Part shown: one piece after another, positions 2,961 through 34,127 of the stretch
How positions within the stretch are numbered: position 1 is the stretch's first letter
Layout: each line of letters begins with the position of its first letter
Origin: a virus
Virus record (IMG/VR): IMGVR_UViG_3300045988_034929
Span: 1 to 34,127 of that record
Length of the DNA: 34,127 nucleotides
Direction: 5' to 3' (one strand)
The notes under the pieces: model-generated
Told to the model about the DNA's origin: nothing
Database searches by the model: none
The model's input: only the letters and a program-made list of their open reading frames with translations
Translations under genes and position numbers: made by a program

Positions 2961-3128
2961 ATGAATGATAGAGCGGAAATAGTTAGAGTAAAAACATTCG
3001 GAAAGGTAGCTTTTCAAGTGAACATAATAAACTCCGAAACGGGATTGTACCGAAATAGTCTATCCAGAGGATTTGAAACAAGGAAAGAAGCTTTAGAATT
3101 TATATCAGATTACGGTTTAACAATTTAA
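2961..3128 (+). CDS. Hypothetical protein, 55 aa (MNDRAEIVRVKTFGK...).
   Basis: Manual translation; below the ORF-track size cutoff. Preceded by the conserved leader AATTTAAAAACTAAAGATT-ATG. Confidence 0.5.
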   Translation: MNDRAEIVRVKTFGKVAFQVNIINSETGLYRNSLSRGFETRKEALEFISDYGLTI

Positions 3129-9635: not shown

Positions 9636-9683
9636 AAAAGCCCAAATCTGATTACAAAATGTCAGATTTGGGCTTTTGTTTAT
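9636..9683 (+). terminator. Strong intrinsic terminator at the end of the early/accessory module.
   Basis: Perfect 16-bp stem (AAAAGCCCAAATCTGA / TCAGATTTGGGCTTTT) with a 10-nt loop and a T-rich tail. Confidence 0.8.
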
Positions 9684-9717: not shown

Positions 9718-9930
9718 TTAACCACACTTACACAGTAAAAAATCGCTACTGTGTCGTTTTTTGTACACTCTAACTCCTTATATTATAATATATTATATGT
9801 AATTACACAGATACACAGATAAAAAGGGGTTAAAACATTATTCTGGAGAAAAGTGTATTTTAGGGGGTATAAAATATACTATTCTCTATATTAAAGTTTA
9901 GAAAAAAAAGCGTGTATCTGTGTAAGTGCT
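9718..9930. repeat. Copy 1 of the duplicated ACACAG element (copy 2 at 26240..26466).
   Basis: Block 9718-9776 and block 9803-9847 are nearly identical to 26240-26299 and 26326-26370. A 14-bp perfect inverted repeat pairs 9803-9816 with 9912-9925. Confidence 0.85.
9730..9762 (+). terminator. Hairpin ACACAGTA-N9-TACTGTGT followed by T6. Either an intrinsic terminator or a palindromic operator.
   Basis: 8-bp perfect stem plus a T-tract. Identical copy at 26253..26285. Confidence 0.45.
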
Positions 9931-10036: not shown

Positions 10037-10067
10037 TTGGTCCGGTGCGATTTGTTGCCTACCTTTG
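10037..10067 (+). promoter_or_regulatory. Bacteroidota-consensus promoter TTG-N20-TACCTTTG upstream of the packaging/structural module.
   Basis: Matches TTG / TAnnTTTG in sequence. Shares CCTACCTTTG.CCGT with the promoter at 32045..32074. Confidence 0.6.
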
Positions 10068-10184
10068 TGCCGTGATTGAAAACAGTTAATACAAACCGCG
10101 AGGTATCGTCCGAATACTACTTGCGCATCTCTTTAAGAGACCGCGAGCACACACGCGCGATACTTTAATACCAACTAACAAACT

Positions 10185-10811
10185 ATGGCAGGAAGAGCAA
10201 AGAAGGAAGCCGCCCCGGATACGAAGGCGGCAATTACCAAGGGACAAGCGACGGGCAAAGCCCCCGCCCCCAAAGACGATTTGAAGAAGTGCAAAGAACT
10301 TTATGAGGTTGTGCAGACGCGCGGTTGTAAAGGCGCTACGTTGTCTACCGTCGAGGAGTGCGTAGATTACGTAGCGGAGTACATGAACTTCTGTGAGCGG
10401 AACCCGTTCATTACGTATGAAGTGCTGAAGGGTGGAAACGCAGCCGGGCAAAAGGTACCCATAGAAAAGAAACGCGCGCCATCGCTCGGGGGCTTCTGCC
10501 TTTTCATCGGATGGACTATGCAGGCGTTCAAGAAGAACGGCGCACGACTTGAAAAGCTGGCAGACGACGGGAACGAAGACGCGGCCAACCTATTGACCGG
10601 GTACGCCCTTATCGCCGAACTCATTGCAACCGATATGGACGAAAGCGCGCTTGCCGGTGTAGTTGATGCCAATTACATGGCGAAATTAAGAGGACTACGA
10701 GACCTTAAAGATGTTACAAGCAACGGCAAGGAAGCCGGCACAAAGGCTATGCAGGTTAACGTACTTTCCGAGGATGCGGTGAAGAACCTACAAAAGTTAG
10801 GAGGCATTTAG
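10185..10811 (+). CDS. terS: Terminase small subunit (putative).
   Basis: Sits immediately upstream of terL. Lys/Ala-rich N-terminus, a P.L.GF..F.G segment and a C-terminal ...KLRGL segment resemble gp3-type small terminases. Confidence 0.6.
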   Translation: MAGRAKKEAAPDTKAAITKGQATGKAPAPKDDLKKCKELYEVVQTRGCKGATLSTVEECVDYVAEYMNFCERNPFITYEVLKGGNAAGQKVPIEKKRAPSLGGFCLFIGWTMQAFKKNGARLEKLADDGNEDAANLLTGYALIAELIATDMDESALAGVVDANYMAKLRGLRDLKDVTSNGKEAGTKAMQVNVLSEDAVKNLQKLGGI

Positions 10812-26191: not shown

Positions 26192-26196
26192 TTAGG

Positions 26197-26233
26197 AAAT
26201 GGAGGGCTGTTAACAGTTCTCCATTTTCGTTTA
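26197..26233 (+). terminator. Terminator at the end of the late/lysis module. Its loop contains the palindrome CTGTTAACAG.
   Basis: Stem AAATGGAG / CTCCATTT, 14-nt loop, T-rich tail. Confidence 0.6.
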
Positions 26234-26239
26234 CATTTG

Positions 26240-26466
26240 TTAACCACAGCTTACACAGTAAAAAATCGCTACTGTGTCGTTTTTTGTACACTCCTAACTA
26301 TTCATTATCAGCTACTTATCTCTATTTACACAGATACACAGATAAAAAGGGGTTAAAACATTATTCTGGAAAAAATAGCATTTACCACTATAGAACGGGC
26401 TGTAAAAACCACTATATCCGAAATGAAAGTTTATGAAAACATGTGTGTGTCTGTGTATGTGTAACG
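26240..26466. repeat. Copy 2 of the duplicated ACACAG element.
   Basis: Blocks 26240-26299 and 26326-26370 are nearly identical to copy 1. Hairpin plus T6 at 26253..26285. Imperfect (12/14) inverted partner at 26445-26458. Confidence 0.85.
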
Positions 26467-26578
26467 CCCGTCTCTGATTATCAGCACTTTAGCTCGCACA
26501 CGCACTTTCTTTACATCTTTTCACTTTTGATTAAGGTTTATTAGCACAAAAAGAGATACAACCTATTGGTATTTGCCG

Positions 26579-26586
26579 TATATTTG
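26579..26586 (+). promoter_or_regulatory. -7 box TATATTTG that would drive transcription into hairpin element copy 2.
   Basis: Same conserved context as 2661..2668. Confidence 0.5.
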
Positions 26587-26592
26587 CAATGT

Positions 26593-26800
26593 CAAAAGGA
26601 AACAAGGTTGTTCTTTACCGAAACTAAGAACACGATACCTTTAAAAGGAAAGTTTGAAAAGTGAATGGGATTCAGACACCGGGTTACCCAAAGACAAAGA
26701 AAAAACTAAGAGGTTGCTCTTTACCAAAACTAAGAGCACGACACCCGAAAGGGAAAGTTTGAAAAGTGAAAGGGATTCAAACACCGAATAGTTTTTTAAA
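26593..26800 (+). ncRNA. Candidate structured RNA of about 210 nt, second copy. Boundaries are approximate.
   Basis: Hairpins at 26609-26632, 26652-26677, 26715-26738 and 26757-26782. Short hairpins at 26638-26648 and 26744-26753. A T6 run lies at 26792-26797. Confidence 0.5.
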
Positions 26801-26840
26801 AAGAAAAGAGGTCACCAAGACATTAAACTGGAAATAACCG

Positions 26841-26873
26841 TGAACAAGTAAGAACGTAGATTTGTTATCATTG
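26841..26873 (+). promoter_or_regulatory. Promoter family member TGAACA-N18-TTATCATTG.
   Basis: Sequence match. The -7 box is imperfect (CATTG). ATG at 26900. Confidence 0.45.
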
Positions 26874-26899
26874 TATTAACGTATAAAACGAAGCGAAGT

Positions 26900-27124
26900 A
26901 TGAAAGCAATTGATTTAATTTTTAGCGAAACGCTGACCGCCGGTCAGTTCGAGATAAAGAGCCACGTATTAGTATTTATAGACGAGGCAGGCAACGAGTA
27001 TAGCGATACTTTTTCAGAGGTACGCCATAACGGAAGATTTGAGGAATACCAATACAACGGTATGGGCTATGTGCACATGCAGAACCTTTTAGAAGCTATT
27101 TTCTTAAATAAGGTTAACAAGTGA
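26900..27124 (+). CDS. Hypothetical protein.
   Basis: 74-aa ORF downstream of the promoter. Confidence 0.6.
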   Translation: MKAIDLIFSETLTAGQFEIKSHVLVFIDEAGNEYSDTFSEVRHNGRFEEYQYNGMGYVHMQNLLEAIFLNKVNK

Positions 27125-27488: not shown

Positions 27489-28091
27489 ATGAAGATTACA
27501 CCGTTAACAATCGATTTTGACGTTACAAACGCACAAGAAGTGGAATTTGTAAATGAACTCATGAACCGTCTATTTGGAAGCGCACCTCTTAAGGCTATGG
27601 CAGCGCCTACAGAAAGCCCCGTAACCAGTACAACCGTACCGACGTTTAGCGAACCTACGCAGACCGCTGCACCCGTACCGACGTTTAGCGAACCTACGCA
27701 GACCGCTGCACCCGTACCGGAAGCAAAGGAGGTGGCAGTAGCTATTGCAGAGGAAACAATAGCAGACGCTATCGCAGAAGTGAAAAAAGAAATTGGAAAA
27801 CCCGTGAAGGTTGAAAAGCCAAAGGCTGCAAAAGAAGCCCCACAAGCGACGATTGAACCCGAACCCGTACAGGCACCCACCAAAGAGGAGAAAGTCCCGG
27901 AAAAAGCCTCAAACGAGCCCCTAACGGCAAAGGACATGCAGGCGCTTATGATTGACTTAATGAAGTCCGGGAAAATCACGCGCCCTCAATTAACGGATAT
28001 TATGTTGGAGTTCGGCGGCGCGTCCCTTATGCGTATCAAGCCCGAAAAGTATGAGCTATTGAAACAACGTATTGAAACATATAACGATTAA
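27489..28091 (+). CDS. Hypothetical protein with a Pro/Thr/Ala-rich repeat linker and a Lys/Glu-rich region.
   Basis: 200-aa ORF containing a perfect VPTFSEPTQTAAP duplication. Confidence 0.7.
   Translation: MKITPLTIDFDVTNAQEVEFVNELMNRLFGSAPLKAMAAPTESPVTSTTVPTFSEPTQTAAPVPTFSEPTQTAAPVPEAKEVAVAIAEETIADAIAEVKKEIGKPVKVEKPKAAKEAPQATIEPEPVQAPTKEEKVPEKASNEPLTAKDMQALMIDLMKSGKITRPQLTDIMLEFGGASLMRIKPEKYELLKQRIETYND
27636..27713 (+). repeat. Perfect 39-bp tandem duplication (2 full copies plus 6 nt), in frame within the CDS.
   Basis: GTACCGACGTTTAGCGAACCTACGCAGACCGCTGCACCC occurs twice in a row. Confidence 0.95.
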
Positions 28092-32112: not shown

Positions 32113-34127
32113 ATGAAGCATCTTTTTATCGATTTCGAGACATATAGTGAGACAGATATTAAAAGCGCTGGCAACTACAAGTATTGCGAGGATGAAAATT
32201 TTCAAATATTGTTGTGTGGTTACATGTGGGACACCGACACGGAGGTATCAATAATAGACCTTACAACCCCCAACGGGCGTACAGAGTTTAATGAGTTGTT
32301 TACGGCCGTAACCAATGACCCGGAAGTAATTATAGTATGCCACAATGCTACATTTGAGCGTATTTGTTTGCGCGAGTATGGGTTTGACATAAGCCCTATG
32401 CGTTTTTTCTGTACGGCTAACATGTCATTGTATTGCGGTATGCCCGCTTCACTCGAAGCCGTATCTAACATTCTGAACCTGGACAATAAGAAGAAGGGCA
32501 CGGGCAAAAATCTTATCCGTTACTTTTCAATTCCTTGCAAACCTACCAAAACAAACGGAGGGCGCACACGCAATCTGCCCGAACACGCCCCCGAGGACTG
32601 GGAGGAGTTCATCGATTACCTACGTTATGATGTGCTTTCAGAAAAGGAAATATTCGGTAAGCTGTCCCGGTTTGAATTCCCGGAAGAAGAACAACGCATT
32701 TATGCGGCAGACCAGCGCATAAACGATTACGGTATATTGGCTGACCTTGAGTTGGCACATGCCGCGCAGGACATGGACGAAGAATATAAAGCGCGCCTAA
32801 CCGAAAGAGCCGAAAAGGAATTCGGGTTAAGCTCCTTAAAGTCCATGCCGCAGCTTAAGGGCTTCATTAAAGAGCGTACGGGCGTGGTTATTGATTCGCT
32901 CAATAAGAATAGCATAGAAGAGGTGATAAAGACCGTAGCGAGCCTTAAAAACGTTACTGACGAGGATAAGCAAGCCGTGTTAGACGTTATAGACCTACGC
33001 AGGGAGATAGGTAAAACGTCTAATGCCAAATACACCGCCATACTGGCGAGTGCCGGACGGGGCAACCGTATTAGAGGTTTGTTCCGTTACTACGGGGCGA
33101 ACCGTACCGGCCGATGGGCTGGGCGCCTGGTCCAATTACAGAACCTACCGCAAAACCACATCGAAGACCTGGACGGGGCGCGATACCTGGCAAAAATGCA
33201 CGACCTGGATATGATGGAATTCATATATGACAAGCCTACGCATATACTATCACAGCTCATACGTACCGCGTTTATCGCCCCCGAAGGGTACACGTTTGCT
33301 GTAGCTGACTTCTCGGCGATTGAGGCACGTGTAATTGCCTGGGTTGCTAATGAACAATGGCGTTTAGACTTATTTAACGACCCGAAGGCTGATATATATT
33401 GCGCCTCGGCATCTAAAATGTTCGGTGTCCCGGTACACAAAGGCGATGACTTAAGGCAGCGCGGTAAGGTAGCGGAGCTTGCACTCGGATACGGCGGCGG
33501 CATTAACGCCCTTACTATAATGGATATTAAAAAGGCGTTAAAGGAAGAAGAAAAACCTCAAATATTGTCAAAATGGAGAGAAGCTAATAAAAAAATAGTA
33601 TCTTTGTGGCGTTCGTTAGAGGACAGTGCAAAACGGTGTATCGGAACAAGGCGCGAACAAGTTTATAGGATAGACGATGTTTCGAGTATTATTTTTCGAT
33701 ATGAAAGCGGCGCAATGACTATAGAGCTACCGAGCGGCAGGAAGTTGTTCTACCCATCGGCAAGAATGGGAAAACGTACTATCGAAGGCGTTAACGGCTC
33801 GTTTGAGGTTGAGGACATCTCGTATATGGGACAAGACCAAACGACTGGGAAGTGGGTTAAGCTAAACACCTACGGGGGCAAGTTAACCGAGAACGTTGTG
33901 CAGGCGATAGCCCGTGACTTGCTGGCGAATGCGATTTTCAAGGTATTCGATTTGGGCTTTAACATCGTTCTGCATGTGCATGATGAGATTGCCGCCGAGA
34001 TACCGAAGGACGGAAACGAAGAAAAGACGCTGCAAATAATGAGTGATGCCATGTGCAACGCCCCGAGTTGGGCAAAGGGCATACCATTAAGAGCAGCCGG
34101 ATATATTACTGATTATTACAAAAAAGA
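32113..34127 (+). CDS. Family A DNA polymerase with a 3'-5' exonuclease domain. Open at the window end; it continues to 101..103 of the duplicated start.
   Basis: Manual translation shows no stop codon. Exo motifs DFET, HNATFE and YLRYD. Pol motifs A DFSAIEARV, B RQRGKVAELALGYGGG and C HVHDEI. Absent from the ORF track only because there is no in-window stop. Confidence 0.95.
   Translation, partial: MKHLFIDFETYSETDIKSAGNYKYCEDENFQILLCGYMWDTDTEVSIIDLTTPNGRTEFNELFTAVTNDPEVIIVCHNATFERICLREYGFDISPMRFFCTANMSLYCGMPASLEAVSNILNLDNKKKGTGKNLIRYFSIPCKPTKTNGGRTRNLPEHAPEDWEEFIDYLRYDVLSEKEIFGKLSRFEFPEEEQRIYAADQRINDYGILADLELAHAAQDMDEEYKARLTERAEKEFGLSSLKSMPQLKGFIKERTGVVIDSLNKNSIEEVIKTVASLKNVTDEDKQAVLDVIDLRREIGKTSNAKYTAILASAGRGNRIRGLFRYYGANRTGRWAGRLVQLQNLPQNHIEDLDGARYLAKMHDLDMMEFIYDKPTHILSQLIRTAFIAPEGYTFAVADFSAIEARVIAWVANEQWRLDLFNDPKADIYCASASKMFGVPVHKGDDLRQRGKVAELALGYGGGINALTIMDIKKALKEEEKPQILSKWREANKKIVSLWRSLEDSAKRCIGTRREQVYRIDDVSSIIFRYESGAMTIELPSGRKLFYPSARMGKRTIEGVNGSFEVEDISYMGQDQTTGKWVKLNTYGGKLTENVVQAIARDLLANAIFKVFDLGFNIVLHVHDEIAAEIPKDGNEEKTLQIMSDAMCNAPSWAKGIPLRAAGYITDYYKK
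34029..34127. repeat. Second copy of the 99-bp terminal repeat.
   Basis: Identical to 1..99. Confidence 0.95.

Follow-up and report, generated by a model that had tools for sequence, protein, structure and literature searches.

Two loci with one repeated element

The DNA considered here, IMG/VR record IMGVR_UViG_3300045988_034929 (34,127 nt, positions 1 to 34,127; this whole stretch is called the window below), carries at two places, near 2.6 kb (locus 1) and 26.6 kb (locus 2), a promoter-proximal element made of two similar RNA modules. Since the same 99 bases stand at both ends (1-99 and 34029-34127), the window represents a whole phage genome, circularly permuted and 34,028 bp long, in which every gene lies on the plus strand. 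Its closest relatives are the virulent Bacteroides uniformis siphophages BU183P1, BU2-1, BU730P1 and EMB1/2, at 88-89% identity, followed by many more distant Phocaeicola phages. The gene order, taken from the annotated relative BU2-1, runs from the late genes to locus 2, small open reading frames (ORFs), a DUF2800 nuclease, a single-stranded DNA-binding protein, the DNA polymerase (its gene spans the window end) and a VapE-type primase-helicase, and then through locus 1, further small ORFs, nucleases and an SNF2 helicase back to the late genes. Pfam confirmed the key families in the window; Pfam and PHROGs were uninformative for the small ORFs flanking the modules, as well as for the ORF that replaces the RNA in BU2-1.

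At locus 2 a sequence-only reading of this DNA had listed a terminator, an ACACAG repeat, a TAnnTTTG promoter, a two-module element, a T-run, a second promoter and the first gene of the next block. All are present in that order, at coordinates within 1-2 nt of those given. The late (tail/lysis) operon closes with an intrinsic-terminator-like hairpin (26195-26228, plus strand as are all features below unless stated), with a 15-pair stem including six G-C pairs and a loop of four with CTGTTAACAG at its tip, then GTTTACATTT; it is context, outside the RNA. The second copy of the ACACAG element (26250-26383), with a second hairpin and T6 (26253-26285) and iteron-like ACACAG repeats, lies upstream of the RNA promoter. 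The latter (26535-26586) comprises an upstream element ATACAACC at 26556-26563 and a Bacteroidetes-type -7 box TATATTTG at 26579-26586, a block invariant between the two loci. The two-module element follows (26590-26797), ending in T6 (26792-26797), then a GAAC-type promoter-like element with a degenerate -7 box (26840-26873, GTGAAC...TATCATTG), and finally the first ORF of the replication block (26900-27124, ATG at 26900, 74 aa, no family match).

Locus 1 repeats this layout. A G+C-rich hairpin (2554-2571), again context, comes directly after the primase-helicase gene (108-2546), and is followed by the promoter (2627-2668, GTTAAC-N28-TATATTTG, -7 box at 2661-2668), the two-module element (2672-2882), a GAAC-type element (2902-2935, GTGAAC at 2902-2907...TCTTATAG) and an ORF of 55 aa (2961-3128). 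The T7 run listed at the end of this copy exists, one base further on, at 2876-2882 instead of 2875-2881. The proposal that the element is duplicated at the heads of both early gene blocks is thus borne out. Between the two copies, identity is 86% across 390 aligned columns and reaches 92-94% within the module blocks. A 34-nt core pattern has four exact matches in the window, all on the plus strand, for 0.00 expected (100 shuffles). A coding role for the element was rejected: a 51-aa ORF (2622-2777) exists in copy 1 only, and the copies differ by indels of 1 and 3 nt.

A four-way-junction RNA

Minimum-free-energy folding turns the four copies into one RNA module of ~100 nt (~95-105 nt), a closed four-way junction. 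The modules had been described as paired hairpins; that they are structured, two at each locus, stands, while the simple hairpin gives way to a closed junction. Proceeding inwards, a helix P0 of variable sequence is followed by a purine-rich internal loop (AA/GG, AGA/GAA or GA/GA) and by P1 (GGU/ACC), inside which are found P2 (7 bp), a 5-nt linker, P3 (2-3 bp, capped by a GAAA tetraloop in b-type modules), an AAA linker and P4 (7 bp), which runs straight into P1. Two loops are near-invariant, UACCRAAACU on P2 and AAGUGAAWGGRA on P4. In module 2a (26590-26696), supported by minimum-free-energy fold, covariation and a covariance-model score of 132 bits, P0 is UGUC.../...GACA, P1 pairs GGU (26606-26608) with ACC (26678-26680), P2 carries the loop UACCGAAACU, P3 is short and P4 carries AAGUGAAUGGGA. 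Module 2b (26700-26797) has the same fold, its P0 being an A-run (26700-26708) paired with UAGUUUUUU. At locus 1, module 1a (2672-2781) has a P4 of GAUUAAA/UUUAAUC, compensatory with respect to that of 2a, and module 1b (2785-2882) ends in the T7 run.

Homologues gathered from INPHARED, IMG/VR and gut metagenomes bear this fold out. In an alignment of 59 distinct cores, 93.3% of the cells fall in standard pairs, a share that sliding the partner column lowers to 29-55%, ten pairs are changed on both sides, and the covariation score is reached by none of 500 shuffles; sequence diversity behind these figures is modest (two major lineages and a few divergent members), many covarying cells being inherited, not independent. 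The fold was also examined with a smaller alignment set and with RNAalifold. Divergent members add compensatory changes of their own: GGC/GCC and CGU/ACG in P1, U-A as the first pair of P4, and GUUUGC/GCAAAC in P2. Because G-U wobbles outnumber A-C mismatches (27 cells against 6, the doubtful third pair of P3 being left out), the strand that folds is the plus strand. The homologue search was seeded by a pattern, and the invariance of some loop positions is partly by construction; the loops are still conserved in later covariance-model and protein-anchored searches that relaxed this seeding. A further candidate pair links the two loops, between the second C in that of P2 and the leading G of the GG in that of P4: C-G in 52 cores, U-G in 6, U-A in 1 (4 loci), and C-A never. 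Chimeric a/b modules exist, pointing to recombination between modules.

Restriction to one phage clade, and a natural deletion

The module is confined to Bacteroides and Phocaeicola siphophages of ~33-38 kb. At least one copy is present in 37 of the 39 INPHARED isolates whose primase-helicase is at least 58% identical. When 185,579 prokaryotic species (one genome each) were scanned with the core pattern, no module copy was found in a host chromosome: the single genuine match is a phage-sized contig of 34 kb binned as a metagenome-assembled genome, and the other two are chance matches. All metagenome matches are human-gut contigs of phage size. A gut contig of 128,884 bp (OGLQ01000047.1), well above the ~35 kb of these phages, with a Phocaeicola-type locus of polymerase, primase-helicase and two modules, may represent a concatemer, a larger element or an assembly error. 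A further 53 viral contigs, collected with a gapped pattern anchored on the P2 loop, were rejected, all being chance matches by the covariance model.

Within the clade, copy number varies from 0 to 2 per locus and from 0 to 4 modules per genome, and the locus varies as well. The window has a-b arrays at both loci. At locus 2 of BU2-1 and BU183P1 there is one a-module, with no T-run, and at locus 1 of these phages a 74-aa ORF is joined to the same promoter; most B. uniformis relatives have a locus 1 without modules. In Phocaeicola phages locus 2 has no module and locus 1 has one or two, every one with a promoter-like element of its own. In BV737P3, BV283P2 and the IMG/VR loci L186 and L187 the module stands ~30 nt ahead of a start codon. 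No module was found in the syntenic outgroups BS162P3 and PM708P4, even by a covariance-model search with filters off.

The most telling case is BV739P1, isolated on P. vulgatus as a plaque-forming phage. It aligns with BV737P3 over 93% of its length at 90.5% identity, and 81 nt are gone that correspond exactly to the P1-P4 core, the P0 hairpin being kept (L207, 10688-10716); no other module is found anywhere in its genome. This phage is decisive on essentiality: the module is dispensable. It is selected nevertheless, because 37 of the 39 isolates of the clade carry at least one copy. The comparisons define the module as a new structured RNA family that is transcribed-strand specific, promoter-proximal, clade-restricted, prevalent, modular and dispensable.

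Locus 1 as a cargo slot

What replaces the module is also informative. Among 66 IMG/VR loci downstream of the primase-helicase (L138-L206), about 12 have modules. In most others the conserved promoter is followed, at +42 nt, by one of at least 10 unrelated small ORFs, in a slot that lies ~125-170 nt past the primase-helicase stop codon. Several of these ORFs are lipoprotein-like, with signal peptides (MKKLVVLAVL..., MRKLLFLLVVLAGLTGC...), a pattern reminiscent of moron or superinfection-exclusion genes. As a case in point, relatives' homologues of the ORF at 2961-3128 (N-terminus MNDRAEVVR...) begin 42 nt past the strong promoter with no RNA between. These comparisons mark locus 1 as a hypervariable cargo slot. 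The cargo sits upstream of the operon's own promoter-like element in the window and at locus 1 of BU2-1, BU183P1 and BS162P3.

A second RNA of ~180 nt, multibranched and unrelated to the module, fills the slot alone or ahead of a b-module (L138, 5061-5235; L153, L172, L194, L195 and L197; BS162P3, L130, 1020-1212 on the minus strand). Its sequence identity exceeds 95% between phages with primase-helicases of 59% identity, its fold has a z-score of -2.8, and it has no match in Rfam.

Promoters and transcript ends

Bacteroides promoters normally have a TTTG at -33 and a TAnnTTTG centred near -7. In the window a family of the form GTTAAY-N28-TAnnTTTG, with an (A/G)AAC(C)AAC element near -33, occurs on the plus strand at six sites at least, with fixed geometry (2627, 5165, 7706, 27113, 29281 and 29681; 7 found for 0.78 expected). 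Its members have GAACCAAC at -33, and the spacer often holds a dyad AACG...CGTT. This geometry suggests that a phage- or host-encoded factor acts there. The GAAC-type elements downstream of the modules share the architecture of this GTTAAY...GAACCAAC...TTATMTTTG family, with a degenerate -7 box (TCTTATAG, TATCATTG), and the one at 26840-26873 is, by that architecture, the replication operon's own promoter; its equivalent in BU2-1 comes after an ORF, not an RNA. The RNA promoter itself is conserved in relatives, including phages without modules. A scan with a sigma-70 model remained at the level of shuffled sequence in the window, that model being not applicable to Bacteroidetes.

The distance from the -7 box to P0 is 3-6 nt in all three types of junction observed (strong promoter to module a; strong promoter of Phocaeicola phages to their first module; GAAC-type element to their second module). 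Because of the known geometry of the Bacteroides -7 box, we infer that the 5' end of the RNA falls at the base of P0. At the other end, the last module is followed by a T-run (at least five T within 30 nt) in 42 of the 63 distinct arrays whose flanks are complete, and in 23 of the 25 two-module arrays. In b-type modules the U-run doubles as the 3' strand of P0, paired to the upstream A-run, and this pairing covaries (CUA/UAG vs C/G). At the T6 and T7 runs of the window the U-tract is present, yet the stem that precedes it is the A-U-rich P0 of a branched structure, which the terminator scan did not call; the clear terminators of the phage (9640-9677, 21017-21047 and 26195-26228) look different. 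Termination at the T6/T7 runs is therefore plausible, but probably leaky.

An accessory early RNA as the preferred reading

The earlier description of the element as a promoter-proximal structured RNA on the plus strand, usually followed by a T-run and a second promoter, is upheld, and the order in the window (promoter, RNA, T-run, separate promoter) is that of a gene. The element is best read as a gene-like cassette for a self-folding RNA module of ~100 nt. One of the alternatives put forward at the outset, a discrete small RNA of ~210 nt, accords well with a promoter, a and b modules and T6/T7. Going one step further, we propose, with a probability of about 0.4, that the module is an accessory early RNA which acts by binding a protein conserved across Bacteroides and Phocaeicola. 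Host RNA polymerase would transcribe the module or modules as soon as infection begins. The P2 and P4 loops would touch, making a tRNA-like elbow, as one covarying pair supports. In the window, leaky termination at T6/T7 would release the a-b dimer as an RNA of ~210 nt; in relatives without a T-run, processing would do so. The RNA itself would be the product, a conditionally useful cargo and no obligatory cis switch for the genes downstream, and a conserved protein, for instance a defence, RNA-processing or transcription factor, would be bound by its invariant loops and thereby titrated or redirected.

To be sure, several observations weigh against this proposal. The 5' and 3' ends of the RNA are those that we infer from the flanking signals, and one third of the arrays have no T-run. 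In several phages the module lies ~30 nt before a start codon with no promoter between; there it is formally a 5' untranslated region, and a role in trans would therefore need processing. No partner protein or target was found, the neighbouring ORFs belonging to no family; the scan of 185,579 species revealed no host-chromosomal look-alike that the RNA could mimic, and nothing in the phage is convincingly complementary to the loops. The a-type modules of the two loci form distinct lineages, which could mean locus-specific (cis) roles. As for the elbow, a neighbouring loop-loop pair shows a single G-to-A change that is uncompensated (L137), and the loop-loop covariation probably reflects a single evolutionary event, which makes the contact a lead, not a proof.

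The rival that survives best, although we hold it to be unlikely, is processive antitermination or anti-pausing in cis: the nascent module would bind the host RNA polymerase that transcribes it, which would then read through terminators downstream (putatively the hairpin after the primase-helicase gene, two strong ones at 9.64-9.77 kb and one at 21.0 kb). The model is the put RNA of phage HK022, which works in cis on the beta' zinc-binding domain of RNA polymerase to overcome terminators. It is ~70 nt long, with two stem-loops in a V shape and a triplex at stem I, putL standing at the 5' end of its transcript (PMC9378689). The likeness is genuine: in both cases a structured phage RNA comes just past early promoters, in two copies that head two early units, with no dedicated protein evident. 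As for putL, the module is placed at the extreme 5' end of the transcripts from both early-block promoters; the genes are co-directional, with strong plus-strand terminators downstream; the invariance of the loops points to a highly conserved partner, of which RNA polymerase would be an example; every module-bearing phage examined has at least one module upstream of the middle/late region; and in several relatives the module is a true 5' untranslated region.

Yet the put-like fold that had been anticipated is not there. A closed four-way junction of ~95-105 nt, supported by covariation and often in tandem, excludes membership of the put family, and the host belongs to Bacteroidota whereas put occurs in Enterobacteria. 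The array of the window has its own T-run, often seen elsewhere too, after which the operon has a promoter to itself; the late operon, for its part, has a candidate promoter at 10059-10066. Placement just downstream of early promoters, one copy per early operon, is found in the window and is not conserved in relatives, where a locus has 0-2 copies. The syntenic BS162P3 and PM708P4 do without the module, in most relatives a cargo ORF is joined directly to the same promoter, and BV739P1 is viable with its core deleted. Module-free loci, replacement by ORFs or by another RNA, and this clean deletion in a natural isolate disfavour an essential antitermination role; a non-essential effect of the module on elongation in cis is possible.

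A riboswitch or attenuator leader is quite improbable. Here a ligand or a protein would stabilise P0, in b-type modules the A-run/U-run helix, and the resulting terminator would block read-through into the early operon. The compact, conserved, aptamer-like junction with its unpaired purines, the tandem units, as in some tandem aptamers, and the merging of the P0 of module b with the T-run through a pairing that covaries would suit such a device. No known class matches, however. Rfam 15 gave no match at gathering threshold in the whole window, and at E<=10 both copies and a Phocaeicola homologue returned chance-level partial matches only (E 1.4-8). There is no conserved alternative pairing or expression platform, a third of the arrays, single a-type modules among them, have no T-run, the genes downstream are unrelated between phages, and in the window a separate promoter follows the element.

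We would give just as little credence to a stabiliser of the 5' end or a processing signal, in which a tRNA-shaped module would shield early mRNA from 5'-end-dependent decay or be cut by enzymes of the RNase P or RNase Z type. In its favour, the first transcribed nucleotides are paired in P0; P1 stacks contiguously on P4 and on P2 in a cloverleaf-like topology with the loop-loop contact; several relatives have the module as a 5' untranslated region; and BV739P1 kept the P0 hairpin after losing the core. Against this, a simple hairpin would be enough for protection and the invariant loops would stay unexplained, while most promoters of the same family work with an unstructured leader of 42 nt. 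tRNAs and tRNA-like domains (the YrlA Y-RNA, transfer-messenger RNA) do share with the module four helices in a cloverleaf, a closing stem stacked on the 3' hairpin and a probable contact between 'D-like' and 'T-like' loops. The module has 7-bp stems, loops of 10 and 12 nt, an 'anticodon arm' of 2-3 bp, no CCA end and no T- or D-loop consensus. ARAGORN found no tRNA gene in the window, neither it nor the Rfam tRNA models recognise the module, and with a P3 of only 2-3 bp a tRNA identity was rejected.

Finally, an element acting as DNA, whether single-stranded hairpins serving as priming or origin signals for the adjacent primase-helicase, as the sequence-only reading had also envisaged, or repeats retained solely as recombination substrates, is very improbable: copy 1 does start ~90 bp past the primase-helicase gene, covariation by itself looks the same in RNA and in single-stranded DNA of the same strand, and the chimeric modules attest recombination, but the structure begins a few nucleotides past the -7 box in three types of junction, locus 2 lies a long way from the primase gene, many phages have only a single module or lack it, selection on pairing and on loops is unexpected for recombination scars, and GC skew, uniformly positive across the window, gives no origin signal.

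Other phage RNAs

Small cloverleaf-like RNAs, C4 of phages P1 and P7 and CI of P4 (the Rfam C4 family), are processed from the leader of the operon that they control. Like them, the module is a small multi-hairpin RNA at the 5' end of an early phage operon, possibly released by processing and acting through its loops. It differs in having no Rfam match at E<=10 and no conserved complementary targets for its loops downstream, in phages that show no lysogeny or immunity module. Complements of the loops are no commoner in the phage than in shuffles, the single 13-nt match (26516-26528) being upstream of the promoter. An antisense RNA of the C4/CI type was rejected, the loops having no complementary conserved sites in the same operon.

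Phages of Bacteroidota and Bacillota also carry arrays of non-coding RNA associated with UG27 reverse transcriptases, with hairpin units of ~135-167 nt, an asymmetric internal loop and a pseudoknot, beside the reverse transcriptase and two accessory ORFs (bioRxiv 10.64898/2026.09.22.753630). These too are structurally conserved phage units, variable in number and gained or lost between close relatives. In contrast, the module makes four-way junctions of ~100 nt, at most two per array, and the reverse transcriptase that UG27 arrays need nearby is not encoded; no such domain was found in the early or middle ORFs, nor in annotated BU2-1, and an RNA of the UG27 or retron type was rejected.

Phages are further known to expose host immunity to RNA decoys: pseudo-ToxI antitoxin mimics, RNA anti-CRISPRs, and phage tRNAs directed against anticodon nucleases. 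Such decoys against host immunity are treated in bioRxiv 10.1101/2023.03.15.532788. The module shares with decoys its accessory nature, variable copy number, early expression, place in a hypervariable slot and dispensability on a permissive host; it differs in that it resembles no known host RNA, has no match in host genomes, and has a unit ~3 times longer than ToxI-type repeats. A pseudo-ToxI was rejected: units of ~100 nt in at most 2 copies contrast with tandem repeats of ~34-45 nt, and no host match came from the 185,579 species genomes. By analogy, the module would work most like RNA antiterminators of the put/EAR type or like phage RNA decoys. No description of it emerged from the literature searched; the candidate-RNA screens PMC10690425 and PMC8040213 may list it anonymously, and no candidate presented in the text of PMC10690425 fits.

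Why the module matters

Few phages of the dominant bacteria of the human gut can be cultivated. The virulent siphophages of Bacteroides and Phocaeicola are among these and, to our knowledge, almost nothing is known of their early gene control or of how they evade host immunity. The module offers a good entry point: it is supported by covariation, specific to one family, present in nearly all isolates of one clade, and located behind the most conserved promoter of these genomes. With a natural variation in dose (0-4 modules per genome) and a natural knock-out, BV739P1, its function is therefore testable with existing isolates. Tentatively, the module might represent a new functional class of phage RNA that captures a conserved Bacteroidales protein, either as an RNA-only antiterminator or as a tRNA-shaped decoy of a host defence or RNA-processing factor. 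If it binds RNA polymerase, RNA-only antitermination would extend to Bacteroidota, its first known occurrence outside Proteobacteria and Firmicutes. As a decoy, it would give gut phages a further RNA factor for anti-defence or host takeover; this version would explain the hypervariable slot, the alternation with unrelated small proteins and with the second RNA, and loss on permissive hosts. Either way, the slot at locus 1 marks a hotspot of accessory cargo worth mining.

Further features of the window

Just upstream of the locus-2 promoter, TCTTTTCACTTTT (26516-26528) has 13 nt complementary, G-U pairs allowed, to the b-type P4 loop. It resembles an inverted fragment of the P4 hairpin and is conserved in BU2-1 and BU183P1.

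The ACACAG element (9727-9860; 26250-26466) consists of a hairpin with T6 and of short direct and inverted repeats around an A+T-rich core, and sits upstream of the replication block and again upstream of terS. Its two copies are 100% identical between 26250-26293 and 9727-9770, and 90% identical between 26316-26383 and 9793-9860. Relatives have equivalent elements (L134, 15730-15950; L132, at its ends; L131, 31500-31800), with a repeat word proper to each phage: ACACAG in the window, GACCAG in BU183P1, GGAACA(C) in Phocaeicola phages and TTGTCTAAAC in PM708P4. Such repeats look like iterons or operators for a phage-specific DNA-binding protein, and would make a candidate origin or regulatory site.

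The middle genes close with a strong terminator (9640-9677), made of GCCCAAATCTGA...TCAGATTTGGGC and then a T-run. Further on, TACCTTTG (10059-10066) is a candidate late promoter, with a G+C-rich, possibly structured leader of ~120 nt between it and terS (10059-10185). In the replication block, an ORF with no family match (27489-28091) contains two tandem copies of 39 bp (27624-27701), 90% identical, which code for an in-frame repeat of 13 aa.

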